Shown piece by piece: positions 11,623-31,734 of a stretch of 64,000 nt of DNA. Below the pieces are notes generated by a model. It was not told the origin of the DNA. It made no database searches and saw nothing but the letters and a program-made list of their open reading frames with translations. The position numbers were made by a program, and so were the translations under genes. Source of the DNA: an uncultured SAR86 cluster bacterium. Its GTDB lineage: Bacteria > Pseudomonadota > Gammaproteobacteria > Magnimaribacterales > D2472. Position 1 is the stretch's first letter; each line of letters begins with the position of its first letter. The stretch is taken from positions 39,808 through 103,807 of the forward strand of contig CACLXS010000002.1 in NCBI GenBank assembly GCA_902610905.1, read 5' to 3'.

Positions 11623-12300
11623 TCAATCTATGAAATTAAGTGCTTGCTTTAACTCTTTGGGCGGCTCTGGCAAATCTCTAAAAATCCTCCATGCAATCTT
11701 TGTGCTTGGAAAAACAACCGCCCATGCGGTTATAAAAATCGCCAAAAAATATATGGTTATGCCTTTATTAGATACAAACCACTGTTCTAGTAAACCTTTG
11801 TATGGAGCAATGATATTGTCATAGAAATCAACCGATGCTGAAGCACCATGCATAATTTCTTCTTCGCCTCGAAAGATTATAGAGCCGACACCTGATAAAC
11901 CAGGACGTACTTTTTTAACAATTTCTTGAGTTTCAGCCGAATAAGAACCAAAGGTTTGAGCCGTTAGCGGTCTAGGCCCTATAACACTCATATCACCAAA
12001 GAGGATATTTAATAACTGAGGTAATTCATTAATTTTAGTTTTACGCAAAAATTTTCCTACTGGCAAAATCCTAGGATCTCCTTTCATTGTTACTGTTCCA
12101 GTGCCAATATTTGGGCTATCTTTAAGCATAGTTGCAAATTTAAGTAGCTTAAATACCTTTCCATTTTTACCAATACGATCCTGCAAAAAGAAGATTTCAC
12201 CCTCCCCAGAAAACCTTAAAATCAAAACAATTGGAACTAGCAACGGTGATAAAACTAACAATGCTAAACCAGAAAAAAATAAATCAAAAAAACGCTCCAT
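11623..12300 (-). CDS. Initiating phosphoglycosyl transferase (small PglC/WbaP-C-type bacterial sugar transferase)
   Basis: 225 aa with an N-terminal re-entrant helix, then FFLQDRIGKNGKVFKLLKFATM...DPRILPVGKFLRKTKINELPQLLNILFGDMSVIGPRPL, the Bac_transf signature. Confidence 0.85.
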   Translation of the reverse strand: MERFFDLFFSGLALLVLSPLLVPIVLILRFSGEGEIFFLQDRIGKNGKVFKLLKFATMLKDSPNIGTGTVTMKGDPRILPVGKFLRKTKINELPQLLNILFGDMSVIGPRPLTAQTFGSYSAETQEIVKKVRPGLSGVGSIIFRGEEEIMHGASASVDFYDNIIAPYKGLLEQWFVSNKGITIYFLAIFITAWAVVFPSTKIAWRIFRDLPEPPKELKQALNFID

Positions 12301-12302
12301 AA

Positions 12303-13490: not shown

Positions 13491-13552
13491 AATTATATTT
13501 AAAAATTATTCGTATATTATATTACTAATAAAAGTTATTGCTTTATTCTAAA

Positions 13553-17095: not shown

Positions 17096-17158
17096 TAATT
17101 AATTCGCTTAATGGATTGGTTCTTTTGGGATTAGAGAAGATGTCATTATTTTCATTGC

Positions 17159-18385: not shown

Positions 18386-18873
18386 TTTCTTGAAGAAATA
18401 ACTTTAGCAGGATTACCAACTGAAATTGAATATGGCGGAGTATCTTTTGTGACTATGCTCCCCGCCCCAATAACACTACCTTTTCCAACTGTAACGCCTT
18501 GTAATATTATTGCTCCAGCACCGATCCAAACATCATCTTCTATAGTAATAGGTATGTCTTTTCTTCCCTGTTGATTAATAGGAATTTCAGTGTTTTCGAA
18601 AAGATGATTTTTAGACCATATTATTACCTTTGGTCCCAATAAGACATCATCACCAAGGTTTATGGTTCCGCATAAATGAGAATTACAATTTACATAAAAA
18701 TTTTTACCAATATTTATTTGAGAAGTGGGCATTATTCTTACTCCACTCTCAATAATTCCACTTTCAATAGTTACATTTTTTCCTAACTTAACTTTACTTT
18801 TTATTTTTATTCCAGACAGTCTTAATTTATTAACTCTGATTAACGAGATAATAGTTGATATTAAATTCTTCAC
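18382..18873 (-). CDS. Left-handed beta-helix (hexapeptide-repeat) acetyltransferase
   Basis: 163 aa containing IEDDVWIGAGAIILQGVTVGKGSVIGAGSIVTKDTPPYSISVGNPAKVI, typical of Mac/LacA-type acetyltransferases. Confidence 0.85.
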   Translation of the reverse strand: MKNLISTIISLIRVNKLRLSGIKIKSKVKLGKNVTIESGIIESGVRIMPTSQINIGKNFYVNCNSHLCGTINLGDDVLLGPKVIIWSKNHLFENTEIPINQQGRKDIPITIEDDVWIGAGAIILQGVTVGKGSVIGAGSIVTKDTPPYSISVGNPAKVISSRK

Positions 18874-20036
18874 TTTTTAAATCTCCCAAAAGTATTTTTT
18901 AAAAAAGGTTTCCAATCTCTAGTGCAAAAACTTGCATGAATGACAAATGGATTTAAAAAATATCTAAAAAATAAGATTAAATTTTTAAATATATGATCTC
19001 CTTTAATAACATTAACTAGATGTAATGTGTTATAGGTATATATTTTAGAGGTAACTGTTTGTTTTCTATTATTTAATTTACAGGTCAGCTTTTGGTTTGT
19101 CGCATTAAGCATATCAATATAAGGAATATTTACCCCAGCTAATTTTCCAGCATAATGCCACATCATATATCTAAAGTTTATTTCCATTAAAAAATATTTA
19201 TTTCTTTTAATACAATATTTAAACTCTGGCTGAACTATGCCTGTAAAGTTTCCTTCCTTTACAAGTCTTCGTGCAGATTCATAAACATCTTTATTCCACT
19301 TTGCTAATGATGATGCAAAAACGCCAAATTGCCAGGGTGACTGGCTAAGCTTTCTTCCTGTCCAATAGGCAATAATTTTTCCTTCGGAACATATACATAG
19401 ACAAGACCATACTTCTCTTGGATCAGCCTCGATTACTTCAGATACCAAAAAACTATCGTCCTCACTTTTTGAATTTAAAAATGAAATTAATTCAGAATTA
19501 CAGGAAAATTTTTTTGCTCTAAAATAGTTCTTGCTTGTGAGCTCTCGATTATCACGAGATTCAGGTTTAACTACGCAAGTAAAATCTTTAATTTTCTTAA
19601 TATTTTCAATTATACTTTTTCTAGTTCCACTATAGGTTTCTGGACAGTCTACCTGAGCACTTTTAGCTAATTTATACTGATTGATTTTTGAATTAAAGCT
19701 TGTATTAAATTGGTGGCTAGTCCAGAGAACATTTTGTTCTAGATTGCTTTGACAAATTTCATCTAAATGCCAATCTGCTGTTGCAAACAAAATAATTTTT
19801 TTTGAATTATTTTGTTTTGCGAAATCATTAATAGTTTTTAAAATAGAAGAATTTTTATTGTATGGAATAAAGGTGTCGATAAGCTTGCTGACTGAAACCA
19901 TTGCATTTGAATCAGCAACAATTGCAATGTTGCAATGTCCGTAAAGGCTTCTTACTATTCCATATGCATTTATATGTCCGCCCAAGACTAAAGCGATATT
20001 TTCTTCTAATTTAAGATTCTTTTTAAAATGTTCCAT
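18870..20036 (-). CDS. ATP-grasp family ligase (COG3919-type carboxylate-amine ligase)
   Basis: 388 aa. The N-terminus ALVLGGHINAYGIVRSLYGH matches the COG3919 pre-ATP-grasp pattern. Also present are VVKPESRD, EVIEAD and the Mg/ATP-site-like FLMEINFR (E-x-N). Confidence 0.65.
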   Translation of the reverse strand: MEHFKKNLKLEENIALVLGGHINAYGIVRSLYGHCNIAIVADSNAMVSVSKLIDTFIPYNKNSSILKTINDFAKQNNSKKIILFATADWHLDEICQSNLEQNVLWTSHQFNTSFNSKINQYKLAKSAQVDCPETYSGTRKSIIENIKKIKDFTCVVKPESRDNRELTSKNYFRAKKFSCNSELISFLNSKSEDDSFLVSEVIEADPREVWSCLCICSEGKIIAYWTGRKLSQSPWQFGVFASSLAKWNKDVYESARRLVKEGNFTGIVQPEFKYCIKRNKYFLMEINFRYMMWHYAGKLAGVNIPYIDMLNATNQKLTCKLNNRKQTVTSKIYTYNTLHLVNVIKGDHIFKNLILFFRYFLNPFVIHASFCTRDWKPFLKNTFGRFKK

Positions 20037-21127
20037 ACATGTTTATAACCAAATTGATTGAAGAGTTTTATAGCAATATAGCTCCAGCGAGTAAATTTTA
20101 CAGTATTTGAAACCAGAAAATATATTGATTTATAAAAATTGTTATTTGGTACAAGCTTAAGAATTAGTTTTTTAAAATGATATTTAATAAAAAATAATAA
20201 ATAGTATATTCCTTTAAGTGGTTTGACTGATGATGAAGAAAATGACTGAATCATAAAACTTTCTTTAAAAGAATGGTTATGAGTATCAAATTCACAAATT
20301 AAAGAGATTCTATTTTTTAATCTCCATTTTTTTAAGGTGAGTTCATTTACTTTATGATACGAGTATGTCTCCTTAAAATATTCTCTTTTTTTACTTAATT
20401 GTGTTGGAGGCTCGATAACGAAATTTGGGAATAAAAAATTACCTAATGAATAATATACAGGCTTATTATAAAATCTTTCAGATGGGAGAATTATATGAGG
20501 GTGCATTCCAATAATCGCTTTAACATTTTGATGATATAAAATTTTCTTTGCAAGATTTCTAGTATAGGGATGTGGAATTGGAACATGCTCAACACCCCAA
20601 TGAATAAATATAATAAAATCTTTCTCTTTATGTTTGTTCAATTGTAAACTTATACTCTTATAATCACCTGCCATTAACCCAGGCTTTGAATCTGTTGCTA
20701 AAGCTATATTATTAAGTGTAGGCTTATTAAATGCGCAACATCCCAATATCCATATATTGTTACTCAAAAGTGTTGGTTGCTCAGCTTCATCTTTGTTAGA
20801 ACCAGCACCAAATACTTTAGAGCCAGACGTTTCTATTATTCTTTTTATATATCCAATATTATCAAGCCCTCCGTCATGAATATGATTATTAGCAAGTCCG
20901 ATATGTGTTGGTTTTAGATTGCCAATTCCACGAATTAAACTATTTTCAGATGACAAAACTGTAGATTTATTTTTAATACTAGATGAATAAATTGATTGTT
21001 CAATATTTGTAATAAGGAAATCAAAATTCTTATTAGGATATTCAATTTCAAATGATTTATTTTCTAAGCAACCTACAAAACATGTATCACCAGTGAATAT
21101 AGCTTTTCTACTAATATTATTTATCAT
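20006..21127 (-). CDS. CapA/PgsA-like (PGA_cap) metallophosphoesterase-fold protein
   Basis: 373 aa with GDTCF, GLANNHIHDGG, FGAG, IFIHWGVEH, IIGMHPHI and YYSLGNFLF. These follow the order of conserved blocks in the poly-gamma-glutamate CapA family. Confidence 0.7.
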   Translation of the reverse strand: MINNISRKAIFTGDTCFVGCLENKSFEIEYPNKNFDFLITNIEQSIYSSSIKNKSTVLSSENSLIRGIGNLKPTHIGLANNHIHDGGLDNIGYIKRIIETSGSKVFGAGSNKDEAEQPTLLSNNIWILGCCAFNKPTLNNIALATDSKPGLMAGDYKSISLQLNKHKEKDFIIFIHWGVEHVPIPHPYTRNLAKKILYHQNVKAIIGMHPHIILPSERFYNKPVYYSLGNFLFPNFVIEPPTQLSKKREYFKETYSYHKVNELTLKKWRLKNRISLICEFDTHNHSFKESFMIQSFSSSSVKPLKGIYYLLFFIKYHFKKLILKLVPNNNFYKSIYFLVSNTVKFTRWSYIAIKLFNQFGYKHVWNILKRILN

Positions 21128-22340
21128 AATTATGTGTAATAAAATTTCTTAAAATTAATAGCAAAGCTAAATAAAATATAAATGAAACCGCAACATATGC
21201 GTTCAATAACAAAATATAGTTCCCTTCATAATTATTAAAAATATATAAAAGTAACATATTTGTAATGCCCAAATAAGTAATATTCCAATACAAAGAAATA
21301 TCCTGCTTACTATAAACATTTGTTGTCATGGAAACTGGTACAACAATGAGTTTTATAAAGAATATTGGAACAAGAATCGTAGCTAATTGAAAGATACCCT
21401 GCCAATTTTCATCAATGATCCCATGATTAATATTTTGAGAAAAAAAGTAAGCAGAGCTAAAAATTACTCCAGAGATAGCTACCAAAATTAAAGTTGTTTT
21501 GTTGAATAGCTTTAATGCTTTTACTTTACTTTCCTTAATTTTTGATGCGGATCTATAATAAACTCTTCCAACCGCTGATCCAATTAAAGCAGATGGAGCT
21601 CCCAATAACCTTTCTATGTATGCATAATGTCCTAATACAACCTCACCTCCAGAGCCTCCAATAAAAAATGGAATAGAGCTTTTTCCCATTGTATTAATGA
21701 AAATACTTGGTGCAGAAAATTTCGGAAATTTATAATGACGATTAAAAATTAATAATATTTTTTTTATTTTGAATTTAATTTTTAAATTAGGCCAAATTAA
21801 ATAATTAACTAGCATTAATGAAAGAATATGCGCCAAAAGCATCACATAAATATTGCTTATGAAAAGGTATCCAAAAATTATTTGAATTGATACCAATACA
21901 ATATTTTTAATAATTTGAGATTTAGCAATCTTAGAATATTTTTCTTGTCTGTTGTAAAAAGAATAGTTTATATTCCAGAGAGCTGTAAAAAATATTCCCA
22001 AAGGGACTGCAAAAAGAAATATTTCTAGATGATCATAAACTATTACGCTCAAGAGTGATGCAATTAAAGTAAATACAATAGAAATTAAAGAGGCTATAAA
22101 TGAGAGCAGAATTGTTGTGCTATACAAAATCTTTATATGATGATTTTTTGCTATCACAATTGCATGCTCTAACCTTAAGGAGGCTGCAGAAGAGACAAGA
22201 TTTACTATAGCGATATATAAGGCATATATTGCAAAGGCTTTTGGTTCGTATATCTTAATCAATATAGGTAAAGACAATACGACAATTATTTGAGATGCGG
22301 TAGATGCAGAGGCTAGGTTTATAACTGATCTAATAAACAT
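21117..22340 (-). CDS. wzx: Oligosaccharide flippase (Wzx, MOP superfamily)
   Basis: 407 aa with about 12 TM segments. The N-terminus NLASASTASQIIVVLSLPILIKIYEPKAFAIYALY is typical of Wzx/RfbX. Confidence 0.8.
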   Translation of the reverse strand: MFIRSVINLASASTASQIIVVLSLPILIKIYEPKAFAIYALYIAIVNLVSSAASLRLEHAIVIAKNHHIKILYSTTILLSFIASLISIVFTLIASLLSVIVYDHLEIFLFAVPLGIFFTALWNINYSFYNRQEKYSKIAKSQIIKNIVLVSIQIIFGYLFISNIYVMLLAHILSLMLVNYLIWPNLKIKFKIKKILLIFNRHYKFPKFSAPSIFINTMGKSSIPFFIGGSGGEVVLGHYAYIERLLGAPSALIGSAVGRVYYRSASKIKESKVKALKLFNKTTLILVAISGVIFSSAYFFSQNINHGIIDENWQGIFQLATILVPIFFIKLIVVPVSMTTNVYSKQDISLYWNITYLGITNMLLLYIFNNYEGNYILLLNAYVAVSFIFYLALLLILRNFITHNYDK

Positions 22341-22352
22341 TTCTAGCTAATT

Positions 22353-23486
22353 TTAATTTTTCAAAACTTCTTCTATAATTTTATTTTGTGCACTCTCTGA
22401 AAGATATGGATGCATTGGAAGACTAAGGACACTTTTAGAGAGCATTGCAGAAACTTCTACACCTGATGATACTCTTGGATAATGAGAATATCCCTTTTGT
22501 GAGGATAAAGGTATGGGATAATAAACAACAGAGGGTATTCCTGAAGATTTAAGGTTTTTTTGAAAAAGGTCCCTATCTTTATCATTTAAAATCAAAGTAT
22601 ATTGAGCCCATGCGCTAGACATATAATCTGGAATGTTGGGGGTAAGATATTTGACTGATAAAGCTTCTGTATAAATATTTGCAACGTTGTTTCTGAGTTT
22701 CAATTCTTCTTCAAATAGTTTTAATTTTTCAATTAAGATAGCTGCTTGAATGGTATCAAGCCTTGAATTCAAACCCACTATGACATTATCGTATTTTTCA
22801 GAGCCTTTGCCATGCAGCCTTAAAGAATTTATCTTCTGAGCATAATCATCGTTATTTGTAAAAATGGCACCTCCATCACCATAGCAACCCAAAGGTTTAG
22901 CGGGGAAAAAACTTGTAGTAGTTATGTCACCCAATGAACCTACTTTTGTATTCCTAAATGACGCACCAAAGCTTTGAGCACCGTCTACAAGAACTTTTAT
23001 ATTTTCTGAATGTGCTATTTTTGATATGACATCTATATCTGCTGGTCTTCCAAATAAATCAACCGCTATTACACATTTAGGGTTAAGCCCTTCGTTGCGG
23101 CAATCAATTATTGCCTGTTTAAAACTTTCAGAATCGATGTTAAAGGAATCTTTTGAAACATCAACAAAATATGGGGTTGCACCTAGTTGTGCTGGAGCTT
23201 CCGCAGATGCAACATATGTAAATGAGGGAATAAATACAACATCTCCTCTGCCAATACCCCAAGTCATCAAGGCAAGGGTAAGTGCATCAGTCCCGTTAGC
23301 ACAAGTGAGCGCATGCTTAGCTTTTGTAAAATTTTTCAGCTGCTCTTCAAAAGTTTTTACCTCTGGGCCCATAATATATTGACCATGATCTAGGACATTT
23401 TTTATGGCAATATCTAATTTTGATCTAATTAGTTTTTGTTGTGCAACTAAATCTATAAACTTTGCAGGTTCTGAGTATTCACTCAT
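22353..23486 (-). CDS. wbpE: DegT/DnrJ/EryC1-type PLP aminotransferase, WbpE-like (UDP-2-acetamido-2-deoxy-3-oxo-glucuronate aminotransferase)
   Basis: 377 aa containing GPEV..FE, CANGTDALTLAL and the FFPAKPLGCYGDGGA lysine block. It lies next to wbpD-, wbpB- and wbpA-like genes. Confidence 0.8.
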   Translation of the reverse strand: MSEYSEPAKFIDLVAQQKLIRSKLDIAIKNVLDHGQYIMGPEVKTFEEQLKNFTKAKHALTCANGTDALTLALMTWGIGRGDVVFIPSFTYVASAEAPAQLGATPYFVDVSKDSFNIDSESFKQAIIDCRNEGLNPKCVIAVDLFGRPADIDVISKIAHSENIKVLVDGAQSFGASFRNTKVGSLGDITTTSFFPAKPLGCYGDGGAIFTNNDDYAQKINSLRLHGKGSEKYDNVIVGLNSRLDTIQAAILIEKLKLFEEELKLRNNVANIYTEALSVKYLTPNIPDYMSSAWAQYTLILNDKDRDLFQKNLKSSGIPSVVYYPIPLSSQKGYSHYPRVSSGVEVSAMLSKSVLSLPMHPYLSESAQNKIIEEVLKN

Positions 23487-24063
23487 TATTTATCTCCACA
23501 AGGCTGTCTTGCTCTATAAGTTTATATTTTGTTCCTTCGATTGGGCATATTAAATCATCTCCTAGGCGCCCACCAGCTTTACTAATCCACCCTATCCTTT
23601 TTGCAGGAACGCCTGCCATCAATGCAAATGGTGGAACATCTTTAGTAACTAGTGCTCCAGCGCCAATAAAGCAATATTCACCTAAATTATTACCACAAAT
23701 GATAGTTGCATTTGCTCCTATAGATGCTCCTCTTTTAACAAGAGTTTTACGATACTCATGTTTACGAACTATCTCTGACCTAGGATTGTTAACATTAGTA
23801 AAGACACAAGAAGGCCCACAAAATACACCATCTTCTATGAAAACTCCCTCATATATACTTACATTATTTTGTATTTTTACACTATTTCCTATATTTACAT
23901 TTGGTCCAATGCAAACATTTTGACCTAACGAACAATCTTTACCAATATTACTATTTTGTAGAATATGGCTAAAATGCCATATTTTTGTACCGGTTCCAAT
24001 ATTCACATCACTATCAATATAAGACGACTCATGTATATATACATTTTTAAAAATACAACTCAT
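23479..24063 (-). CDS. wbpD: WbpD/WlbB-like hexapeptide N-acetyltransferase (UDP-2-acetamido-3-amino-2,3-dideoxy-glucuronate N-acetyltransferase)
   Basis: 194 aa containing IHESSYIDSDVNIGTGTKIWHFSHI...VFTNVNNPRS...GANATIICG..LGEYCFIGAGALVTKDVPPFALMAGVPAKRIGW. Confidence 0.8.
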   Translation of the reverse strand: MSCIFKNVYIHESSYIDSDVNIGTGTKIWHFSHILQNSNIGKDCSLGQNVCIGPNVNIGNSVKIQNNVSIYEGVFIEDGVFCGPSCVFTNVNNPRSEIVRKHEYRKTLVKRGASIGANATIICGNNLGEYCFIGAGALVTKDVPPFALMAGVPAKRIGWISKAGGRLGDDLICPIEGTKYKLIEQDSLVEINNE

Positions 24064-25055
24064 AAGTCTTTAATTTTAACTGATTTATTTTGAATTGAAG
24101 ATAGGGATGAGGCAGAAAGAACCTTTAATACTTTCAAGCCCTCGTTAAAATCTGTTAAGGGGGGCTGGCCTTTACAAACTACTTCTATAAAATGGTTACA
24201 CTCATTTTTTAATGGTTCAGATTTTTCAACCCTTATGTAATTTTGTTCGCCCTTTGTTATCGTTGGCAGTTCTTTGAGAGTCTTAATTGTATGATGGTAT
24301 ATAGAAAGTTTCTTTTCCCAGACTTGCGTATCATCAAATATAGCCATTCCTTTATTTCCTATAACAACTAATTTTTGTTCTTTGCAAGGATGAAGCCATG
24401 AAACGAATACATGAGCTGAAAATTGAGATTTAAAATCTAAATGTAAAATAGAAGTATCAGCAATATTTGGTTGGATAATGCATGATGATGTTGTCTTTAC
24501 TATCTGAGGCTCTTCTTCGGCCAACGATAAAATCATTGAAATATCATGAGGTGCAAAGCTCCAAATCACATCTTCTTCAGTACGGATTTTACCAAAACTC
24601 AAGCGATTAGAATAAATGTAATTTAAATCTCCTAATTCTCCTGATTTGACAATTTCTTTTAATTTAACAAAAACCGGATGATATTGAAGAAGATGTCCTA
24701 CCATAAGTTGCACATTATTTTTTTTTGCAGTTTCTATCATTAAATTGGCCTCACTTACATTCATAGCTAGAGGCTTTTCAACAAATACATGTTTTTTTGC
24801 ATTCATAACATCAATTGCCAAAGATGCATGAAACTCAGCTGGGACAGCTAAAACAACAGCATCGATATCTTTATTAGTAAGGACTTCTGAAAAATTGAAA
24901 TGTGGAACATCATATTCATTTGCAAAAAAATTAGCTACATCGTTGTTAGGATCGCATACCGCTCCTAATGCACCGATTTCAGCATAATTTCTTACTAAAT
25001 TTTTACCCCAATAACCACATCCAACAACGGCAATATTTCTTTTTATTTTAACCAT
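24060..25055 (-). CDS. wbpB: Gfo/Idh/MocA oxidoreductase, WbpB-like (UDP-GlcNAcA 3-dehydrogenase)
   Basis: 331 aa with Rossmann IAVVGCGYWGKN and VFVEKPLA. It sits between the wbpA-like and wbpD-like genes. Confidence 0.75.
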   Translation of the reverse strand: MVKIKRNIAVVGCGYWGKNLVRNYAEIGALGAVCDPNNDVANFFANEYDVPHFNFSEVLTNKDIDAVVLAVPAEFHASLAIDVMNAKKHVFVEKPLAMNVSEANLMIETAKKNNVQLMVGHLLQYHPVFVKLKEIVKSGELGDLNYIYSNRLSFGKIRTEEDVIWSFAPHDISMILSLAEEEPQIVKTTSSCIIQPNIADTSILHLDFKSQFSAHVFVSWLHPCKEQKLVVIGNKGMAIFDDTQVWEKKLSIYHHTIKTLKELPTITKGEQNYIRVEKSEPLKNECNHFIEVVCKGQPPLTDFNEGLKVLKVLSASSLSSIQNKSVKIKDL

Positions 25056-25082
25056 TCTTAGATATTAAAATTATGAGTGATA

Positions 25083-26378
25083 TTAAAGTCTAAAAACATC
25101 AAAACCTTCCTCGATTAAACTTTCTTTTTTGTAAATTGATTTTATGTCAGCTATTACTGGTGATAATCCTTTGCACATATCTCTTAAATACTCACAGCTA
25201 AGATTGCGGTACTCTTCATGTCCTACAGCAACAATGATTGAATCAAGCTTGTGTCTTACTTCATCTATTTTTGTTAATTTAATGCCGTAAGTTTGTTCAA
25301 CATCGACTGGATCAGCCCATTCATCTGAAACAATAACATTTGTACCCCATTTTTTAAGTTCAGCAATAACATCAATTATTTTAGTATTTCGAATATCAGG
25401 ACAATTTTCTTTAAAAGTGATTCCTAAAACACCTACATTACTACTATGAATATCAATCCTATTTAATACCATTTTTTGTATTAACTTATTGACCACATAT
25501 AAAGCCATATTATCGTTAATCCTCCTTCCAGCTAAAATTACTTCAGGGTTATATCCAACTTGTTCAGCCTTATGTGTTAAATAGTATGGATCTACTCCTA
25601 TACAATGTCCTCCTACAAGTCCTGGCTTAAAAGGCAAAAAATTCCACTTGCTTGCAGCTGCATCTAAAACATCAAGAGTATCAACCTCAAGTCTATTAAA
25701 AATTACTGAAAGTTCATTCACTAAAGCAATATTTAAATCTCTCTGAGTATTCTCAATAACTTTTGCAGCCTCTGCTACTTTGATACTTGAAGCCTTAAAG
25801 GTTCCTGCTGTAATAATAGTTTTATATAGATCATCAATTTTTTTACTAGTCTCTGGTGTTGAGCCACTTGTAATCTTAACAATTTTAGTGAGAGTATTTA
25901 CCTTATCACCAGGGTTAATTCTTTCTGGGCTATATCCACAAAAAAAGTCTTTATTAAATATTAACTGTGAATAGGATTCAAGTATTGGTACGCAAACTTC
26001 TTCAGTACAACCAGGATAAACAGTTGATTCGTAAATAACAATATCATCAACCTTTAGATATTTACCTATCATTTTACTTGCATTAATAATTGGATTTAAG
26101 TTTGGCCGATTAACTTCATCAATAGGAGTTGGAACTGTAACGATGTATACATTAACGTCTTTTAAATCATCAAGGTTATAGGTAAAGTTGAGATGTCTAG
26201 ATTTCTGAATATCCTCACTGTTTACTTCAAGGGTTTGGTCTATCCCTTTTTTTAAATCTTCAATTCTTGATTCACTTATATCAAAACCAATAGTTTCTAT
26301 AGAATTGCCAAATTCTACTGCTAGCGGTAAACCAACATACCCTAAACCAATTATTGCTACTTTTTGTTCATCTATCAT
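25083..26378 (-). CDS. wbpA: UDP-N-acetyl-hexosamine 6-dehydrogenase (WbpA/WbpO/TviB family nucleotide-sugar dehydrogenase)
   Basis: 431 aa containing VAIIGLGYVGLPLAVEF, YSPERINPGD and the catalytic GGHCIGVDPYYL. Confidence 0.85.
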   Translation of the reverse strand: MIDEQKVAIIGLGYVGLPLAVEFGNSIETIGFDISESRIEDLKKGIDQTLEVNSEDIQKSRHLNFTYNLDDLKDVNVYIVTVPTPIDEVNRPNLNPIINASKMIGKYLKVDDIVIYESTVYPGCTEEVCVPILESYSQLIFNKDFFCGYSPERINPGDKVNTLTKIVKITSGSTPETSKKIDDLYKTIITAGTFKASSIKVAEAAKVIENTQRDLNIALVNELSVIFNRLEVDTLDVLDAAASKWNFLPFKPGLVGGHCIGVDPYYLTHKAEQVGYNPEVILAGRRINDNMALYVVNKLIQKMVLNRIDIHSSNVGVLGITFKENCPDIRNTKIIDVIAELKKWGTNVIVSDEWADPVDVEQTYGIKLTKIDEVRHKLDSIIVAVGHEEYRNLSCEYLRDMCKGLSPVIADIKSIYKKESLIEEGFDVFRL

Positions 26379-26428: not shown

Positions 26429-27331
26429 TTATCTTTCTCTATATTGTTGGATAAAGATAAATATCAAAGATAAGAATGCTCCAAAAAACGTGCTGACTAT
26501 TACTATTATTGATCTTGATGGAGATGATTTATATTCAGGTACTATCGGTGGATCAATTATTTTAAAAACATAACTGTCGGTAGATGATGCAAGCATTAAT
26601 GTTCGCATTTGATTTTCAAGCAGCCTGGATGTTACCTCTTTGATAGATTGAATACTAGTAGTATTTTGAGCTTCATTTAAATAGTCAATTGATTTTTTAG
26701 CCAACATTTTATCTGCCTCACGCATACTTTCATTTATTTGTTCGATAATAATATTAAGCCATTTTTGAGCAATAATAGGAGATTTGTGATTAACGCTCAC
26801 TGAAATAAATGAGGTTCTACTATTTTCATTAACAGTTATATTTTCTTTGTATACTCTATAAGCTTCTTGAAGTGATGGTTGGTTTTTCTCACTATATTTT
26901 GAAGAACCTATCCAGGTTTGTGTATCATTTTTATAGATTTTATTGTCGTAAACTATAGTGTTATTTTCAGCATCCCATTTTTTTACAGCCATCAAGTTTT
27001 CTAATTGAATATTGGGTATAAAAAAATTAGCAAAAAAATCAAAAGATTTTATTCTTTCAATACCCTCTTTACTTTTACTAGTCTGATCAACTGGAATAGA
27101 AACTCCAGCCAAAGAGCCTAAAGAAGATAAACTTCCTAGTTTTGATGACATGGCATCTTGTGAATTTGATGGTAATAAAAGAACTTTAGATGAATATATG
27201 TTAGCCAAACTTAATGCATATAGAACTGAACAAACTGCAAAAAATGTAGATATACTTAGTATAGTAAGCTTTTTTTTCCACAGAATAGTAAAGATTTCCT
27301 TTAGATTAATTTCGTCACTAGCTGTATCCAT
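26429..27331 (-). CDS. wzz: Polysaccharide chain-length determinant (Wzz, PCP-1 family)
   Basis: 300 aa containing EINLKEIFTILWKKK plus TM1, a periplasmic coiled region, and a C-terminal P-rich segment plus TM2 (SPSRSIIVIVSTFFGAFLSLIFIF). Confidence 0.8.
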   Translation of the reverse strand: MDTASDEINLKEIFTILWKKKLTILSISTFFAVCSVLYALSLANIYSSKVLLLPSNSQDAMSSKLGSLSSLGSLAGVSIPVDQTSKSKEGIERIKSFDFFANFFIPNIQLENLMAVKKWDAENNTIVYDNKIYKNDTQTWIGSSKYSEKNQPSLQEAYRVYKENITVNENSRTSFISVSVNHKSPIIAQKWLNIIIEQINESMREADKMLAKKSIDYLNEAQNTTSIQSIKEVTSRLLENQMRTLMLASSTDSYVFKIIDPPIVPEYKSSPSRSIIVIVSTFFGAFLSLIFIFIQQYRER

Positions 27332-27399: not shown

Positions 27400-27486
27400 T
27401 GGTACCCGAGGCCGGACTTGAACCGGCACGATATTTCTATCGAGGGATTTTAAGTCCCTTGTGTCTACCAATTCCACCACTCGGGC
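27400..27486 (-). tRNA. tRNA-Leu (anticodon UAA), CCA encoded
   Basis: 87 nt, read as the reverse complement: GCCCGAG TG GTGGAATTGGTAGACAC A AGGGA CTTAAAA TCCCT, a long variable arm CGATAGAAATATCGT, GCCGG TTCAAGT CCGGC CTCGGGT A CCA. Confidence 0.9.
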
Positions 27487-27512
27487 TGATATTTACTTGT
27501 CTCCAATTATTT

Positions 27513-27548
27513 AATTTATATAAATTATATAATTTATATAATTTATTA
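27513..27548. repeat. Four tandem 9-bp A/T repeats (AATTTATAT-like) just upstream of tRNA-Leu
   Basis: The units are aatttatat / aaattatat / aatttatat / aatttatta, read directly. They lie 27-62 nt upstream of the tRNA 5' end on the minus strand. Confidence 0.9.
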
Positions 27549-27630
27549 TACTTTTAACTGGAATCATTACTATAATTTTAATTATCTTGGTAAAGAAATT
27601 TTAAAAATAAATTGCTAAATTAATTGATGA

Positions 27631-28023
27631 TTATATAAGTTTTCCTTCATCTCTCATTTGTTTTCTTATTTTTGTAGCGCTTATATCAGTTACTGATTTT
27701 TCAAACACCTCTTCTTCGAAAACATAACCTACACCTCTTCCATAAGTAATATTAACAATATTTGGAACGAGCATAATTTCATAGTGTACTCCTCTCTCAA
27801 AACCACCTTTTATAAGTCCATCTTCAATATTGCTGCAAACAGTATCCCAGTCAAAAGGATTGTCATCTTGGCCATCGCCTCCAGATGCACCTTGGACATC
27901 TCTGACTTGAATAATTACTTGTCCTGTTTTATCAATACATCTTTTAAATAATTCTTGATGGCCATTGTGCCACGGTTGCCATCTACCAAGCATTTGGACT
28001 GTTGGTTTCTTCCAATTAAACAT
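27631..28023 (-). CDS. Small cytidylyltransferase-fold nucleotidyltransferase, NMN adenylyltransferase (NadM/NadR-N)-like
   Basis: It carries the (H/T)xGH motif in the NMNAT-type context LGRWQPWHNGH and the C-terminal ISATKIR motif. I start it at ATG 28023 (130 aa), which has TAAGGAGAAAT immediately upstream and overlaps the upstream stop as ATGTTTAA. The track start at 28041 lies inside that SD. Confidence 0.6.
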   Translation of the reverse strand: MFNWKKPTVQMLGRWQPWHNGHQELFKRCIDKTGQVIIQVRDVQGASGGDGQDDNPFDWDTVCSNIEDGLIKGGFERGVHYEIMLVPNIVNITYGRGVGYVFEEEVFEKSVTDISATKIRKQMRDEGKLI

Positions 28024-28429
28024 ATTTCTCCTTAATATCATATGCTAAATTTATATGGTTTTTGTCATTCCATTCTGTAATATGATAATCAACGTTACTA
28101 GGAGCTTGAAAGATTTTATTGGTATCCTCAAACCTGCACTCTTTTATTGTATCCAACCAAACTGTAATATCTGCATTAAAATTATTTCTAGTAGACTTTG
28201 TTGGACACACAAAATCACATATAACAAATCTTCCATGGCTTTTTTCAAAATCTGCAAAAGTTTTCATTCTATTAGATTGTCTTGACCTACCTTCATATGA
28301 AAAATCCCAGTCATTTGCCATTTCACGAACTTTATCCGCGTTATACCATGCTGCATTCAAAAGAGGTGCAAGTCTTTCTGTCAAATAAGTTTTTCCTGAG
28401 CCCGGTAGACCCATTACTAATATTTTCAT
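28016..28429 (-). CDS. Small P-loop kinase (APS-kinase / AAA_33-like)
   Basis: 137 aa with Walker A VMGLPGSGKTYL. The segment YNADKVRE...DFSYEGRSRQSNRM...GRFVICDFVCP parallels the CysC-type LDGDNVR...GFS..DR.EN.RR layout. The substrate is unknown. Confidence 0.55.
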   Translation of the reverse strand: MKILVMGLPGSGKTYLTERLAPLLNAAWYNADKVREMANDWDFSYEGRSRQSNRMKTFADFEKSHGRFVICDFVCPTKSTRNNFNADITVWLDTIKECRFEDTNKIFQAPSNVDYHITEWNDKNHINLAYDIKEKYV

Positions 28430-28514
28430 AAATATTTATTATATATTAGAGCGCATTATATACACACATCTTTAAAATAGAAGCTGTTTAAAATAAATAT
28501 AATATTAATTCTTG

Positions 28515-28588
28515 TGGAGGCTGAAGCCGGAATCGAACCGGCGTAAACGGCTTTGCAGGCCGCTGCATAACCACTCTGCCATCCAGCC
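28515..28588 (-). tRNA. tRNA-Cys (anticodon GCA), CCA encoded
   Basis: 74 nt, read as the reverse complement: GGCTGGA...GCGGC CTGCAAA GCCGT TTAC GCCGG TTCGATT CCGGC TTCAGCC T CCA. Confidence 0.9.
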
Positions 28589-28639
28589 TAAAAGTGTGTA
28601 TTGTATACAATAGATTTATTAATGAAAGCAAAAAATCAA

Positions 28640-29407
28640 TTATAAATTTTCAATTCTCTGAATATCACTTTCAATACACTTTTCTCCATATTGGATTTCA
28701 ATTATTCGAACAGGCTCTTTGAATGGATTTATAATTTGATGCCATTGTTCAACATGAACTATATAATGTTCAAATTTATTTAACTTTAATTCATTTATAC
28801 TTCCAGTATTATTTTTATTTGCATATTTGACATAACATGCACCCTCACTTACTAACCATATTTCACTTCTATTAAAATGTCTTTGAAAGCTTATCTCCTT
28901 ACCTGGATTAATAATCAATTCCTTTACTTTAATATTTTTGGTCTGAAATAAATTAAAAAAAGAACCCCAGCTCCTTTCTTCGAAATAATACTGCCATTTA
29001 TTAAGAATCCATGATGAAGAATTTTTTTTATCATCGCCGCCTACAGAAAATAAGAAATTAATACCTTCAACTGACATCTCTGGTATATTTTTATCATTTC
29101 TATCACCGCCATTTGCAAAATAAATTTCATCATTTGGGTATTGCTTTTTAATTTTCTCTAATGCTTTTATGCATGAACCTTTTTGGTCATCATCAAAATC
29201 AATAACTTCATCTACATAACTTATTGAACTAACTATTGAGCATCTCTCTAAGTAAGGCATGAAAAATTTTCCCTTCTTATTTTCAAGCCATTTATCACTG
29301 TTTAAGGCTACTATTAATTTATCTCCAAATTCTTTTGCGGATTTGAAATATTGAATATGTCCAGAATGAATTGGATCAAATCCACCGCTAACAACAACTA
29401 TTTTCAT
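28640..29407 (-). CDS. Fusion protein: N-terminal cytidylyl/adenylyltransferase domain (RfaE-II/TagD-like) plus C-terminal cupin (type-II phosphomannose-isomerase-like)
   Basis: 255 aa. The N-terminus is VVSGGFDPIHSGHIQYF...LIVALNSD. The C-terminus ERSWGSFFNLFQ...KVKELIINPGKEISFQRHFNRSEIWLVSEGA matches the ManC/PMI cupin pattern RPWG...vK.i.v.PG..lS.Q.H..R.E.W.vv.G. It overlaps pgsA by 4 nt. Confidence 0.65.
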   Translation of the reverse strand: MKIVVVSGGFDPIHSGHIQYFKSAKEFGDKLIVALNSDKWLENKKGKFFMPYLERCSIVSSISYVDEVIDFDDDQKGSCIKALEKIKKQYPNDEIYFANGGDRNDKNIPEMSVEGINFLFSVGGDDKKNSSSWILNKWQYYFEERSWGSFFNLFQTKNIKVKELIINPGKEISFQRHFNRSEIWLVSEGACYVKYANKNNTGSINELKLNKFEHYIVHVEQWHQIINPFKEPVRIIEIQYGEKCIESDIQRIENL

Positions 29408-29943
29408 TTTGGTTTAAAGGTATTTAATGTATAAATTAACCCTGTATAAAAAGTAATAAAAAGTGAAATGAATAAGAGAATATCCGCTATAACAATTATT
29501 AACATATTGTTTATGGTCAATCCTAATAAGTATATTGAAAGAGTTGATAGTTGAACGGTGGTCTTTATTTTTGCTAAAAATGTAACCTTGGTCGCATCAC
29601 TTTTTCCATTTCTAGCATTTAAATCTCTTAGAGCCCCCACCCAAATCTCTCTTGTTATAATTACTGCTCCAATAAAACCAATTAAGTAACTTGAAAGATT
29701 TATTGCAAGTCCAAATAAAACAAAAAGAATAAGTATTTTATCTGCAATTGGATCTAGTATTTCACCAAGTTGAGATACTGCATTATATTTTCGAGCTAAA
29801 TAACCATCAAAATAATCTGTGACTCCAGCTATAAAAAATAGCACTAGTGCCAAAAAGTACCCATCAGGTGACATTAACAGCACAAATATTATTGCTGCTA
29901 AGAGAATTCTTGATAATGTTAGTATATTAATTAAGGCTGTCAC
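29404..29943 (-). CDS. pgsA: CDP-diacylglycerol--glycerol-3-phosphate 3-phosphatidyltransferase
   Basis: 179 aa with the CDP-alcohol phosphotransferase motif DYFDGYLARK...G..LDPIADK. It lies downstream of uvrC, as in E. coli. Confidence 0.9.
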   Translation of the reverse strand: MTALINILTLSRILLAAIIFVLLMSPDGYFLALVLFFIAGVTDYFDGYLARKYNAVSQLGEILDPIADKILILFVLFGLAINLSSYLIGFIGAVIITREIWVGALRDLNARNGKSDATKVTFLAKIKTTVQLSTLSIYLLGLTINNMLIIVIADILLFISLFITFYTGLIYTLNTFKPK

Positions 29944-29946
29944 AAT

Positions 29947-31734
29947 TTAAAGCTTTTCTTTGATTAATTGTGCTATTTTGGCATTAATCCCTTTTACAGT
30001 CATTAAATCTTCTATTTTTGCTGATTTGATATTTTTTAAACTTTTAAAATTAAGCAATAATCTCTTCTTTAAAACCTTGCCAACTCCTTCAATTTTATCT
30101 AATTGAGATTTTCTATTTTTTGCATTCTTCTTTTTTCTTTGAGCATTAATTGCAAACCTATGAGACTCATCTCTTATTTCTTGCAATAATAAATAACCTT
30201 TAGATTCCTTTTTAAATTCAATTATTCCTTCTTGTGATAACACTGTTTCTGTTGCTCTTATTCTATTTATACCTTTAACAATTGATATAACTTTTATATC
30301 GTTATGTTCTGAATTATGAATTACTGATTGAGAAAAATTAAGTTGATTACTACCACCATCAATAAGAATTAAATCAGGTTTTGTATCTTTATTATCATAA
30401 TATTTAATTCTTCTTTGAATTACATGCTCTAAAGAACCAACATCATTTCCAGATAACTCTTTTGGTATATTGAATGTTCTATATTCTTTCTTAATAGGTC
30501 CCTCATTTGTATAAACAACACATGCTGTAACAGCATGATTTCCAGAGATGTGACTAACATCATATGCTTCAATTTTCTTTATATCCTTTTTATGTCCTAT
30601 ATGATTATTTAGGTCGTCAAAAGCAAAGTTGTATTTATCGGACTTGCTTAAATGATTTTCAATTATTTGTTTTGCATTTAACTTACATAAATTATAAATA
30701 GGTCGAAGGGATTTGCTTGGACTATGTGTAATTTGGACATTTGCATTAAACTTCTTTTTTAAGACCTTACATATCAATTCTTTGCTTTGAAGTGAGTGAG
30801 TGCATAAAACTTTTTTAGGAATATCCAACTGTGAATCATAAAAGTTAATAATTGCCATTTGATATAAAGAGTCTATAGATTCAAAAAAAGCTTTTTTAAC
30901 TAAATGAGTTTTGGTCCCTCTTATTTTTCCTTTTCTTACTACTATTATTGAAATACCAATATAGTTATTTTCTGAATATATAGAAAATATGTCTATGTCT
31001 CTTGCAATAGTAACCACAGATTGTTCTTCATGAATAAGTTCAATTCTTTTTAATTTATCTCTTATGTCAGCAGCTCTTTCAAAATCTAAATCATTAGATG
31101 CCTTTTGGATGTCATTTTTTAAACGCCCAATAGTCTTTGAGTCAGATGAAGATAAATATGATTTTGCAGATTCTACGTCTTCAAAGTAATCAATTGTCCT
31201 TATATTTTTTACACAGGGTGCCGAACATCTCTTCATTTGAAATTCTATGCAAGGCCTAGATCTGTTTGAAAATGTAGAGTCGTTGCAATTTCTGAGTTTG
31301 AAAACTTTTTGAATTTCCTTAATAGATTTTTTTACAGCGCCTGAACTTACAAAGGGACCAAAATAGTTTGAATTAACTGCTTTTTTTGTTCTTTTTAAAT
31401 ATATGCCTGGATAATCATGATCTAAGGAAAAATATATGTATGGGTATGTTTTATCATCTCGAAGAAGAATATTAAACTTAGGTTTATTTTCTTTGATTAA
31501 TGTTTGCTCTAGGAGCAGCGCCTCAACTTCATTTTTAGTTGTAAAAGTTTCAACCTTGTCTGTTAAGAATTTTATTTGTGAAGTTTTTCTGTCTTTAAAA
31601 GAGTTACCAAAATAACTTGAAACTCTTTTTTTTAAATTTTTAGCTTTTCCAATATAAATAATTTCAGTTTTGTTAAAAAATTTATATACGCCCGGTGTTG
31701 ATGGAACTTTTTTAAGATCAACCGCCATGTTCAT
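29947..31734 (-). CDS. uvrC: Excinuclease ABC subunit C
   Basis: 595 aa with a GIY-YIG N-terminus (PGVYKFFNKTEIIYIGKAKNLKKRV), a UVR domain, an endonuclease region and a C-terminal HhH. Confidence 0.93.
   Translation of the reverse strand: MNMAVDLKKVPSTPGVYKFFNKTEIIYIGKAKNLKKRVSSYFGNSFKDRKTSQIKFLTDKVETFTTKNEVEALLLEQTLIKENKPKFNILLRDDKTYPYIYFSLDHDYPGIYLKRTKKAVNSNYFGPFVSSGAVKKSIKEIQKVFKLRNCNDSTFSNRSRPCIEFQMKRCSAPCVKNIRTIDYFEDVESAKSYLSSSDSKTIGRLKNDIQKASNDLDFERAADIRDKLKRIELIHEEQSVVTIARDIDIFSIYSENNYIGISIIVVRKGKIRGTKTHLVKKAFFESIDSLYQMAIINFYDSQLDIPKKVLCTHSLQSKELICKVLKKKFNANVQITHSPSKSLRPIYNLCKLNAKQIIENHLSKSDKYNFAFDDLNNHIGHKKDIKKIEAYDVSHISGNHAVTACVVYTNEGPIKKEYRTFNIPKELSGNDVGSLEHVIQRRIKYYDNKDTKPDLILIDGGSNQLNFSQSVIHNSEHNDIKVISIVKGINRIRATETVLSQEGIIEFKKESKGYLLLQEIRDESHRFAINAQRKKKNAKNRKSQLDKIEGVGKVLKKRLLLNFKSLKNIKSAKIEDLMTVKGINAKIAQLIKEKL

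Follow-up and report, generated by a model that had tools for sequence, protein, structure and literature searches.

Small genes interleaved with tRNA-Cys and tRNA-Leu at the pgsA-proximal edge of a probable SAR86 surface-polysaccharide island

Gene organization between pgsA and wzz

The DNA analysed here is a stretch of 64,000 nt with a G+C content of ~31% (contig CACLXS010000002.1; hereafter the window). It was assigned to a SAR86-clade gammaproteobacterium from the UvrC-anchored relatives present in the genome collection, which are almost all labelled SAR86 and show UvrC identities of 45–91%. The segment of interest lies at 27.4–29.4 kb. The gene order on the minus strand is pyrF, pgi, uvrC, pgsA, NTcup, tRNA-Cys(GCA), kin, NT2, tRNA-Leu(UAA), wzz, where NTcup codes for a nucleotidyltransferase-cupin protein, kin for a P-loop kinase and NT2 for a small nucleotidyltransferase. 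An initial annotation of the segment had recognized uvrC, pgsA and the two tRNA genes in this order and orientation, which ARAGORN, Rfam, open reading frames (ORFs) and Pfam/TIGR profiles bear out, and had likened them to the E. coli order uvrC-pgsA-glyW-cysT-leuZ, which matches the annotated K-12 record (uvrY-uvrC-pgsA-glyW-cysT-leuZ). It had also placed a 255-aa nucleotidyltransferase-cupin gene, overlapping pgsA by 4 nt, between pgsA and tRNA-Cys, and a coupled kinase/nucleotidyltransferase pair between both tRNAs; the two assignments were recovered, with the start of NT2 corrected to 28023. The features of the region are the following:

29947–31734, minus strand: uvrC (ORF)
29404–29943, minus strand: pgsA, the last core gene (TIGR00560, 123 bits versus a cutoff of 109)
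28640–29407, minus strand: NTcup, coding a two-domain protein of 255 aa, 4-nt overlap with pgsA (PF01467 and PF01050)
28600–28607, minus strand: TATACAAT, -10-like box 11 nt 5' of tRNA-Cys (cross-locus conservation)
28515–28588, minus strand: tRNA-Cys(GCA) (ARAGORN; Rfam RF00005, 63.9 bits)
28455–28462, minus strand: TATATAAT, -10-like box 5' of kin (consensus resemblance only)
28016–28429, minus strand: kin, gene 1 of the cassette, coding a 137-aa APS-kinase-like P-loop kinase (Pfam APS_kinase)
27631–28023, minus strand: NT2, gene 2 of the cassette, coding a minimal HxGH nucleotidyltransferase of 130 aa (PHROG 10255; motifs)
27545–27555, minus strand: AAAAGTATAAT, promoter-like box of tRNA-Leu (spacer comparison with relatives)
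27505–27545: AT-rich near-palindromic repeat between the tRNA-Leu box and tRNA-Leu, with units like TATAAATTATATAA and arms 89–95% complementary
27400–27486, minus strand: tRNA-Leu(UAA) (ARAGORN; Rfam, 57 bits)
26429–27331, minus strand: wzz-type chain-length determinant, first gene of the main polysaccharide block (Pfam Wzz, 45.8 bits; GNVR, 28.1 bits)
11623–26378, minus strand: rest of the glycan island, from Ugd to Bac_transf (Pfam; ORFs)

The two tRNA genes are 1028 nt apart. The mechanical ORF of NT2 begins at 28041, and an ATG at 28023 is preceded by GGAG and overlaps the kin stop by 8 nt (ATGTTTAA). Relatives, whose NT2 homologues have ~130 aa, show an identical overlap, and the ATG at 28023 is most probably the start codon. 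According to Pfam, the island genes beyond wzz code for Ugd, a GFO oxidoreductase, hexapeptide acetyltransferases, a DegT aminotransferase, a flippase-like protein, GT1 glycosyltransferases and Bac_transf.

Border of the flexible island and occupation of its slots

The region was compared with 40 SAR86 species-level genome loci and with the 80 metagenome loci closest by pgsA, using 10-kb flanks, and the presence or absence of NTcup and kin-NT2 refers to the locus rather than to the whole genome. The backbone pyrF-pgi-uvrC-pgsA-tRNA-Cys-tRNA-Leu-wzz is conserved across the 40 SAR86 loci while the content between pgsA and wzz varies. By blastn the window is 92–93% identical over 12.3 kb to loci L001 and L002 (UvrC identity 88–91%), and the alignments end at 29424 and 29414, that is 10–20 nt before the pgsA stop. 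Past pgsA these two loci match the window in the tRNAs only, plus NTcup at 71% DNA identity in L002. Since identity collapses there, the border between core and flexible DNA is the pgsA 3' end, at ~29414–29424, and both tRNA genes lie inside the flexible island. The region is thus not a conserved tRNA cluster invaded by genes, as had been initially proposed. Loci L026 and L027 are 92% identical through kpsF, after which identity falls abruptly to ~65%.

Three slots are delimited by pgsA, the two tRNA genes and wzz. The slot between pgsA and tRNA-Cys is empty (36–61 nt) or occupied by NTcup, by a short gene for a UDP-glucose-dehydrogenase-like protein (UGDH), by KpsF, or by a 3–5-kb block; in five loci NTcup is placed between pgi and uvrC. 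The slot between the tRNAs is empty (16–162 nt) or holds the short UGDH, a GalU-like gene, an epimerase with UGDH, kin-NT2, or a multi-kb block. The slot between tRNA-Leu and wzz is empty or carries a NusG/RfaH-like and winged-helix pair, RfbF-like or NeuB-like genes, or kin-NT2 (L019). By Pfam, the occupants of the slots thus comprise short UGDH, short-chain dehydrogenase/reductase (SDR) epimerases, GalU-like, RfbF-like, KpsF, NeuB-like and NusG/RfaH-like proteins with winged helix-turn-helix partners. The comparison of the pgsA-to-wzz interval suggested along with the initial annotation therefore yielded strong variability and not a universal, invariant arrangement. As relatives vary strongly at exactly these positions, the three inserted genes do not belong to the constant backbone. 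A universally conserved ancestral operon was rejected.

The layout of the window without kin-NT2 is found among its close relatives. In L144, L162, L167 and L186 pgsA overlaps NTcup (82–83% identity), which is followed by tRNA-Cys, and tRNA-Leu comes 58–60 nt after tRNA-Cys in the three of them that reach it. The spacing of the tRNAs is 29–94 nt in ~30 of the ~40 metagenome loci that span both, and kin-NT2 is absent from all 80 metagenome loci closest by pgsA. Neither the window nor any of the 40 SAR86 loci has a tRNA-Gly. The absence initially reported is thus real; the loss is SAR86-wide and has no tie to the inserted genes.

The tRNA genes themselves are moved or duplicated. In L197, a metagenomic SAR86 contig, complete 74-nt tRNA-Cys(GCA) genes at 1441–1514 and 5351–5424 bracket a 3.8-kb insert that holds a frameshifted GalU-like gene along with GT1-like and flippase-like genes (assigned by eye from translations) and no integrase; an FAD-oxidase-like gene then precedes tRNA-Leu. 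This locus suggests that cassettes arrive carrying their own copy of the tRNA. Other arrangements were noted: the order is pgsA-wzz-tRNA-Leu-tRNA-Cys in L163 and pgsA-tRNA-Leu-NTcup-tRNA-Cys in L215, tRNA-Cys is missing from the slot of L028, and pgsA-tRNA-Cys-wzz with no tRNA-Leu nearby is found in L037 (complete genome CP097973). Note that L017 (CAJPUS010000065.1), which is labelled as a metagenome-assembled genome of an uncultured Flavobacteriaceae, has the SAR86 layout pyrF-pgi-uvrC-pgsA-NTcup-tRNA-Cys-UGDH-tRNA-Leu-wzz with a UvrC 69% identical to that of the window; it is probably a binning contaminant.

The pgsA side of the island is conserved in ~120 loci and its distal flank is seen in the window alone. 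The core genes pdxH, infC, rpmI, rplT, pheS and pheT are found there, past Bac_transf at 11623. On the minus strand infC lies at 10161–10685, rpmI at 9943–10137, rplT at 9590–9937 and pheS at 8852–9577; a 643-aa ORF at 6924–8855 (minus strand) occupies the expected position of pheT, a label given from position alone. In the list of Dupont et al. 2012 (PMC3358033), IF3, L20, L35 and both PheRS subunits are given as absent from each of the four early SAR86 assemblies. As their genes adjoin the hypervariable region, the reported absence suggests an assembly-gap artefact and not gene loss. The sole further tRNA gene of the window, tRNA-Pro(GGG) at 1295–1371 on the plus strand, has no relation to the island borders.

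A hypervariable region of SAR86 with genes for outer-membrane modification was reported previously (Rusch et al. 2013, PMC3569297; PMC3358033), as were replacement flexible islands for surface glycans without integrases (Lopez-Perez et al. 2014, PMC4033161). Literature searches found no published placement of the SAR86 island next to pgsA and the tRNAs.

Mobility of the kin-NT2 cassette

Ten SAR86 loci carry kin-NT2. The pair is found at three positions and in two allele types, a distribution that disagrees with UvrC divergence. Type A is found 3' of tRNA-Cys or of tRNA-Leu and type B 5' of tRNA-Cys. Loci L027 and L026 have UvrC proteins that are 98% identical, yet their kin proteins share 61% identity and are coded on opposite sides of tRNA-Cys. 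Conversely, the kin of the window is 80–82% identical to those of L019, L027, L031 and L040, whose UvrC proteins are only 56–69% identical to that of the window; in L019 the cassette sits after tRNA-Leu. The kin-NT2 pair moves horizontally between SAR86 lineages. Where type-A copies occupy different positions, their homology extends from ~2 nt before the kin ATG to ~15 nt past the NT2 stop, a span indicating that the mobile unit is essentially a bare two-gene cassette.

The insertion site in the window can be read from the tRNA-Leu box. Because AAAAGTATAAT lies 3' of the cassette in the window and in the ~60-nt inter-tRNA spacer in relatives, kin-NT2 was inserted between tRNA-Cys and the promoter-like element of tRNA-Leu. 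The interval from this box to tRNA-Leu is an expanded AT repeat in the window (27505–27545) versus ~25 nt of non-repetitive DNA in relatives, and the repeat may be an insertion scar or a product of slippage. A Fisher test of association between kin-NT2 and other genes of the SAR86 islands returned KpsF only, a one-clade effect.

Promoter-like boxes and transcription

A generic promoter scan performed no better than shuffles in the AT-rich DNA of the window, and conservation of boxes across loci was used instead. The motif TA[TC]A[CT]AAT ends 9–19 nt 5' of tRNA-Cys in 26 of 38 SAR86 loci, whatever the upstream gene, with a background of 0.66% of 40-nt windows; TATACAAT is a candidate promoter of tRNA-Cys alone, moving together with this gene. 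A TATAAT box is present 5' of tRNA-Leu where this gene directly follows tRNA-Cys (spacers of L162, L167, L144, L186, L148, L143, L006, L010 and L045 compared), and TATATAAT precedes kin in all four loci with a type-A cassette after tRNA-Cys (window, L040, L027, L031). With a conserved -10-like box for each of tRNA-Cys and tRNA-Leu, one common promoter need not be assumed.

Coding genes and tRNA genes are tightly packed in relatives: NT2 is followed by tRNA-Cys after 3 nt or by tRNA-Leu after 1 nt, the short UGDH gene by tRNA-Leu after 2–21 nt (mostly <=13), and tRNA-Leu by nusG after 6–21 nt (mostly 6–9). The -10-like boxes are missing where coding genes abut tRNAs in these relatives, so that those tRNAs must derive from the transcript of the neighbour gene or from an internal promoter of that gene. 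The scan of 26.3–30.0 kb yielded no terminator-like site. The tight gaps in relatives and the lack of terminator-like sites make it likely that tRNAs and mRNAs are spanned by read-through transcripts, with several promoters within them. In the window, such shared transcription is plausible without being necessary. The Rfam scan returned the two tRNAs only, without a 3'ETS-leuZ-like RNA or a riboswitch. A secondary reading would make the tRNAs a kind of punctuation, with RNase P and 3' processing cutting a read-through island transcript into separately stable mRNAs, while the tRNAs double as portable recombination anchors.

The nucleotidyltransferase-cupin protein NTcup

NTcup matches Pfam PF01467 CTP_transf_like (50.9 bits) and the cupin family PF01050 MannoseP_isomer (67.2 bits, cutoff 23.6), both over cutoff. 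Its N domain is of the cytidylyltransferase-like HxGH type. The best specific model is TIGR02199 rfaE_dom_II (1.9e-17), whose score of 63.4 is below the cutoff of 181.5, and for this reason the N domain was not accepted as an equivalog of HldC/RfaE domain II; the generic cyt_tran_rel is the only such model that passes (52.3 versus 27.7). TIGR01479 (ManC-type) aligns only to the C-terminal 100 residues. NTcup also departs from the type II phosphomannose isomerase (PMI)/GDP-mannose pyrophosphorylase (ManC): the PMI cupin is present, but the N domain is PF01467 and no GT-A-like NTP_transferase is found. Cupin residues Gln175, His177, Glu182 and His223, which we take to be a PMI-type metal site, do not vary among 20 relatives or in a phage homologue with 45% identity.

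The AlphaFold2 (AF2) model of NTcup has a pLDDT of 78.7. In Foldseek searches its N domain resembles TagD (2b7l/1coz, 28–30% identity), its C domain cupin-type phosphoglucose isomerase/PMI proteins, and the whole chain matches CapF best. NTcup is predicted from its sequence and model to be bifunctional, combining an HldC/TagD-like sugar-phosphate nucleotidyltransferase with a PMI-like cupin, and its role in sugar activation is well grounded. Note that Xylella phage Sano codes for a cupin, gp28 (L049 2202–2879), that is annotated as "cysteine dioxygenase" (PHROG 7851) and lies 3 kb upstream of the gene for gp35, a fused kinase-nucleotidyltransferase of the kind described below. PHROG 7851 weakly matches the cupin half of NTcup (6e-5), and the Foldseek cupin matches also include cysteine dioxygenase.

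The kin-NT2 protein family

The kin protein matches PF01583 APS_kinase with 28.1 bits (cutoff 21.1) over profile positions 5–95 of 152 only and scores below the cutoff of NCBIfam TIGR00455 (20.7 versus 138.7). It aligns to the adenosine 5'-phosphosulfate (APS) kinase of PDB entry 2yvu (7e-7) in motifs FS..R..R and F(V/I)xP, that is past the P-loop. Pfam scans of the window-island ORFs tested gave no ATP sulfurylase, 3'-phosphoadenosine 5'-phosphosulfate (PAPS) reductase or sulfotransferase. Membership of kin in CysC was rejected.

NT2 has the motifs GRWQPWHNGH, YGRGVGY and ISATKIR, of which the first and the last are family-invariant and agree with the archaeal nicotinamide mononucleotide adenylyltransferase (NMNAT) motifs GRxQPxHxGH and IS(G/S)TxIR; its sequence relative in the PDB is 1f9a. 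The match to archaeal-type NMNAT profiles (7e-7) is far under the cutoffs (PRK01153, 29 versus 127; TIGR01527, 25 versus 181), and the protein has 130 aa versus ~168 aa for NMNAT. Its AF2 model (pLDDT 87) finds archaeal NMNAT as the best Foldseek match, with TM scores of 0.53–0.66 and E values of 6e-3 or worse, nearly equalled by phosphopantetheine adenylyltransferase (PPAT), TagD, HldC and ATP sulfurylase. NT2 was rejected as an NMNAT (NadM) member given the failed cutoffs, its short length and a fold match that does not discriminate.

A single profile, PHROG 10255, spans both proteins (positions 2–116 for kin and 124–228 for NT2), and fused kinase-nucleotidyltransferase proteins of ~245 aa are coded by Xylella, Stenotrophomonas, Xanthomonas and Clavibacter phages. 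A database search at E <= 1e-5 gives 5242 relatives of the fused form. Because the profile is colinear with the pair and fused proteins exist, kin and NT2 form one functional unit. Across 177 split and fused members the kinase motifs GLPGxGK, D..R, F...R..Q..RM and FVcPT..R are invariant, as are the nucleotidyltransferase motifs GRxQPxHxGH, NP, YGRxVGY and IsATxiR. Among 150 representatives the only recurrent fusion partner of NT2 is the APS-kinase-like kinase; other apparent fusions (chorismate synthase, DHQS, PTA, UCH) seem to be chimeric calls from metagenomes. Literature searches found no published characterisation of this family.

Different reaction schemes can be proposed for the pair by analogy. 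The APS-kinase-like motifs and the kinase/nucleotidyltransferase fusion suggest nucleotidyl transfer followed by 3'-phosphorylation, in the style of PAPS, coenzyme A (CoA) or CDP-amidate synthesis. A sugar-phosphate kinase followed by a pyrophosphorylase is suggested instead by the sugar-phosphate isomerases that accompany the pair and by its likeness to HldE and AfhE (PMC13326640). The NMNAT-like motifs make NAD salvage possible. A more specific proposal is that kin-NT2 and the fused phage form are a new two-step activation enzyme, in which the HxGH protein would join a nucleotide to a small substrate, either phosphorylated or acidic, and the APS-kinase-like partner would phosphorylate the ribose 3'-OH, as in the making of PAPS, CoA or CDP-amidate. 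The resulting activated donor would be new, and with it SAR86 would decorate its surface glycan and phages would modify DNA or the host surface. We put this forward tentatively, as a rather unlikely outcome.

Homologues of kin-NT2 in phages

An IMG/VR scan with the kin of the window gave 491 viral stretches with 58–74% identity, from which 80 loci were kept. NT2 is a separate gene after kin in 74 of them, some of the other six ending at a contig edge. The kept loci code for UvsX-like recombinase, DnaB-like helicase or major head protein families, and those annotated are therefore T4-like phages. Two layouts recur, in which the pair is found either between the UvsX-like recombinase and DnaB-like helicase genes or near a gp23-type major head gene. 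The kin-NT2 cassette is common to SAR86 and to marine T4-like phages and was possibly exchanged between them. The related phage C48C1 has the order epimerase-UGDH-UvsX-hypothetical protein-helicase without the pair at the same site, so the cassette is accessory in phages as well. When the phage genome collection was searched by tblastn with the kin of the window, only 15 records matched, none of them from marine phages.

Several viral contigs with kin-NT2 also code for short UGDH (34–43%), an SDR epimerase and NTcup (43%), and some for an HldC-like nucleotidyltransferase and a small cupin. In L096 and L101 the NTcup homologue lies directly 5' of kin-NT2, with one or two small ORFs between. These viral sugar-type genes adjoin thymidylate-synthase-like, dCMP-deaminase and MazG-like genes. 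Sugar-nucleotide-type genes clustered with genes of pyrimidine metabolism were noted in L094, L096, L101, L113, L123 and other IMG/VR loci, a gene combination that resembles that of phages glycosylating modified cytosines of their own DNA (PMC13326640). Genes rfaE and UDP-glucose dehydrogenase are lipopolysaccharide (LPS)-type auxiliary genes in marine myophages (PMC7029224). In the phage contigs L051–L057 the fused gene overlaps the end of a gene for a 341-aa homologue of adenylosuccinate synthase (PurA), which could be PurZ-like, near IMPDH-like, B12-binding radical-SAM, Fe-S-assembly and UvdE genes, a setting of nucleotide metabolism.

Interpretation and alternative explanations

The reading favoured here, with a probability of about 0.7, is that the region at 27.4–29.4 kb is the proximal edge of the SAR86 hypervariable surface-polysaccharide island (O-antigen/capsule type), in which the tRNAs were retained, the slots are filled lineage by lineage and kin-NT2 is a mobile cassette. 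The anatomy of the locus, its border, the variability of the slots, the mobility of the cassette and its phage homologues are the observations on which it stands. The tRNA-Cys and tRNA-Leu(UAA) genes would be relics of the gammaproteobacterial uvrC-pgsA-tRNA cluster that persist as small conserved units with their own -10-like boxes, and the three slots (pgsA/Cys, Cys/Leu, Leu/wzz) would be filled by interchangeable small genes for nucleotide-activated sugar precursors. Slot 1 holds NTcup in the window and slot 2 the translationally coupled kin-NT2, inserted into the ~60-nt inter-tRNA spacer. Exchange would proceed by homologous or illegitimate recombination anchored on pgsA and the tRNAs and not by an integrase; transcripts would span tRNAs and mRNAs and be separated by tRNA processing. 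NTcup, kin and NT2 would supply activated glycan precursors, kin-NT2 likely by coupling nucleotidyl transfer and phosphorylation.

This reading accounts in part for the initial suggestion that the inserted genes are an outlying precursor module of the polysaccharide locus, since the occupants of the slots in relatives are sugar-nucleotide genes; kin-NT2 may belong to it, by context. Likewise, the idea that all three proteins are of the sugar- or nucleotide-activation type is well grounded for sugar activation by NTcup, while the nearest relatives of kin-NT2 are phage genes in modules of replication and nucleotide metabolism. Several observations weigh against the favoured reading. A glycan role of kin-NT2 is suggested by its context only, and no partner glycan transferase co-occurs with the pair in SAR86 islands. 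The phage copies of kin-NT2 are placed between the genes for UvsX and the replicative helicase, with ThyX, dCMP deaminase and MazG genes in the vicinity; elsewhere among uncultured phages the fused gene comes immediately after a PurA-like gene, IMPDH-like and B12-radical-SAM genes being nearby. Homology between the copies of the cassette stops within ~2–15 nt of the coding sequences and no repeats flank them, which fits neither simple homologous exchange nor a known site-specific system. Co-transcription must be reconciled with the units of the window, each of which has its own -10-like box, the gaps being 51–144 nt. The tree that places SAR86 type A as sister to a marine phage clade, with type B outside, is a crude neighbour-joining one, and presence and absence were scored at the level of the locus.

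The inserted genes could also be the remnant of an island or prophage that an integrase directed to tRNA-Cys or tRNA-Leu: tRNA genes are classic att sites, kin-NT2 has close phage homologues, and L197 carries two tRNA-Cys copies around a 3.8-kb insert. T4-like phages are lytic, however, and the phages with kin-NT2 are T4-like; both tRNA-Cys genes of L197 are complete and its insert has GalU-like, GT1 and flippase-like genes instead of mobility genes. Neither the window region nor any of ~120 related loci contains an integrase-like ORF, an excisionase, a transposase or a phage structural gene. The repeat search gave no partial duplicate of a tRNA 3' end of the att type, the sole tRNA-related repeat being the T-arm common to both tRNAs, the window profile has no anomaly of GC or composition, and PADLOC assigned no defence system. 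These results, which agree with the initial statement that no integrase, tRNA 3'-end repeat or mobile remnant is present, led to rejection of a prophage or integrative and conjugative element remnant, and make integrase targeting very improbable. A real if minority possibility is that kin-NT2 comes from phages as a nucleotide or cofactor module, inserted into a permissive hotspot and unrelated to polysaccharide. It would make a PAPS- or CoA-like product by adenylyl or cytidylyl transfer and then ribose 3'-phosphorylation, or serve NAD salvage as nicotinamide riboside kinase plus NMN adenylyltransferase. The conservation of the APS-kinase motifs past the P-loop (D..R, F...R.rQ..RM, FVcPT..R) across 177 members argues for it, as do the proximity of NT2 to archaeal NMNATs in sequence and fold (GRxQPxHxGH, IS(A/G)TxIR), a fusion that mirrors PAPS synthase and CoA synthase, the phage contexts in replication/nucleotide modules or beside PurA-like and IMPDH-like genes, and the fact that no glycan transferase co-varies with the pair. 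Yet the NMNAT, PPAT and APS-kinase equivalog scores are all far under cutoff, NT2 is 130 aa long and NMNAT ~168 aa, and the window island has neither an ATP-sulfurylase Pfam match nor a sulfotransferase. Moreover, in 10 of 10 SAR86 loci the pair is within the glycan island beside a sugar-phosphate isomerase (the NTcup cupin or KpsF), and in phages it adjoins the NTcup homologue of L096 and L101, with short UGDH or epimerase genes near in other contigs.

In another alternative NTcup, kin and NT2 would form one complete non-canonical pathway for a nucleoside diphosphate (NDP)-heptose or NDP-pentose, with the cupin as aldose-ketose isomerase, kin as C1 kinase and HxGH nucleotidyltransferases, as in GmhA-HldE-GmhB or the phage KpsF-AfhE-AfhF arabinose pathway. 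The N domain of NTcup is indeed most like HldC/RfaE domain II, its cupin keeps the PMI-type Gln-His-Glu-His site, a kinase fused to a nucleotidyltransferase is a hallmark of HldE and AfhE (PMC13326640), and kin-NT2 is always accompanied by NTcup or KpsF in SAR86 and preceded by NTcup in phages L096 and L101. The module has no phosphatase, however, and its two nucleotidyltransferases would be redundant; the KpsF association is limited to one clade and the fold of kin differs from those of HldA and AfhE. In most loci, including all 80 closest metagenome loci, NTcup is found without kin-NT2 and so works without the pair. A single pathway formed by the three genes is therefore improbable, and a slot-filled island edge remains the preferred explanation.

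Significance

SAR86 is among the most abundant uncultured marine bacteria, and its hypervariable glycan island, which is thought to govern phage susceptibility, breaks metagenome assemblies. The exact borders of the island (the pgsA stop and pdxH-infC-rpmI-rplT-pheST) provide an anchor for recovering and comparing islands from long reads. The layout of slots and tRNAs has a finer grain than the replacement of whole islands, single cassettes hopping around tRNA genes. The kin-NT2 pair represents a compact and very widespread phage/host family with conserved catalytic motifs, an accessible target for enzymology that bears on phage-host gene flow in the ocean.

Comparison with known systems

The E. 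coli cluster uvrC-pgsA-glyW-cysT-leuZ and that of SAR86 share the order and orientation of uvrC, pgsA, tRNA-Cys(GCA) and tRNA-Leu(UAA), and the two tRNAs are adjacent in most SAR86 relatives. They differ in that tRNA-Gly(GCC) is lacking in all SAR86 loci, coding genes are interleaved in SAR86, and the cluster is followed by yecA in E. coli but by the polysaccharide island in SAR86.

Proteins that combine domains of related function are known for both inserted units. ManC/AlgA/CpsB resemble NTcup in having a nucleotide-sugar enzyme domain followed by a C-terminal PMI-type cupin with its metal ligands kept, but their N domain is a GT-A-like NTP_transferase, non-homologous to the cytidylyltransferase-like HxGH domain of NTcup. 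S. aureus CapF, the best whole-chain fold match, also joins a Rossmann-type domain to a cupin, its N-terminal domain being an SDR instead of HxGH. A kinase coupled or fused to a nucleotidyltransferase is shared by kin-NT2 with HldE (heptose-7-P kinase and heptose-1-P adenylyltransferase), PAPS synthase, CoA synthase and phage AfhE (arabinose-5-P kinase and UDP-arabinose pyrophosphorylase, PMC13326640). The HxGH fold class of NT2 is that of HldE domain II, PPAT and ATP sulfurylase, and kin resembles APS kinase. However, the combination of an APS-kinase-like P-loop protein with a 130-aa NMNAT-like HxGH protein matches none of these enzymes, and kin-NT2 is under all equivalog cutoffs.

At the scale of the island, the window belongs to a type already described for marine bacteria and noted for SAR86 (PMC4033161, PMC3569297, PMC3358033). 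Like the replacement islands of Alteromonas, SAR11 and Prochlorococcus (PMC4033161) and the SAR86 hypervariable region (PMC3569297), it occupies a fixed site between conserved flanks, near relatives carry wholly different gene sets of similar function, integrases and insertion sequences are absent, and the genes code for glycosyltransferases and sugar-nucleotide enzymes. The differences from the marine replacement islands lie in the proximal 2 kb, which behave as small independent slots around two tRNA genes: in the window island and its relatives genes hop from slot to slot singly or as two-gene cassettes, and tRNA genes are moved or duplicated. It is these fine-grained slots, the mobile tRNA units and a cassette common to marine T4-like phages that make the island edge unusual.

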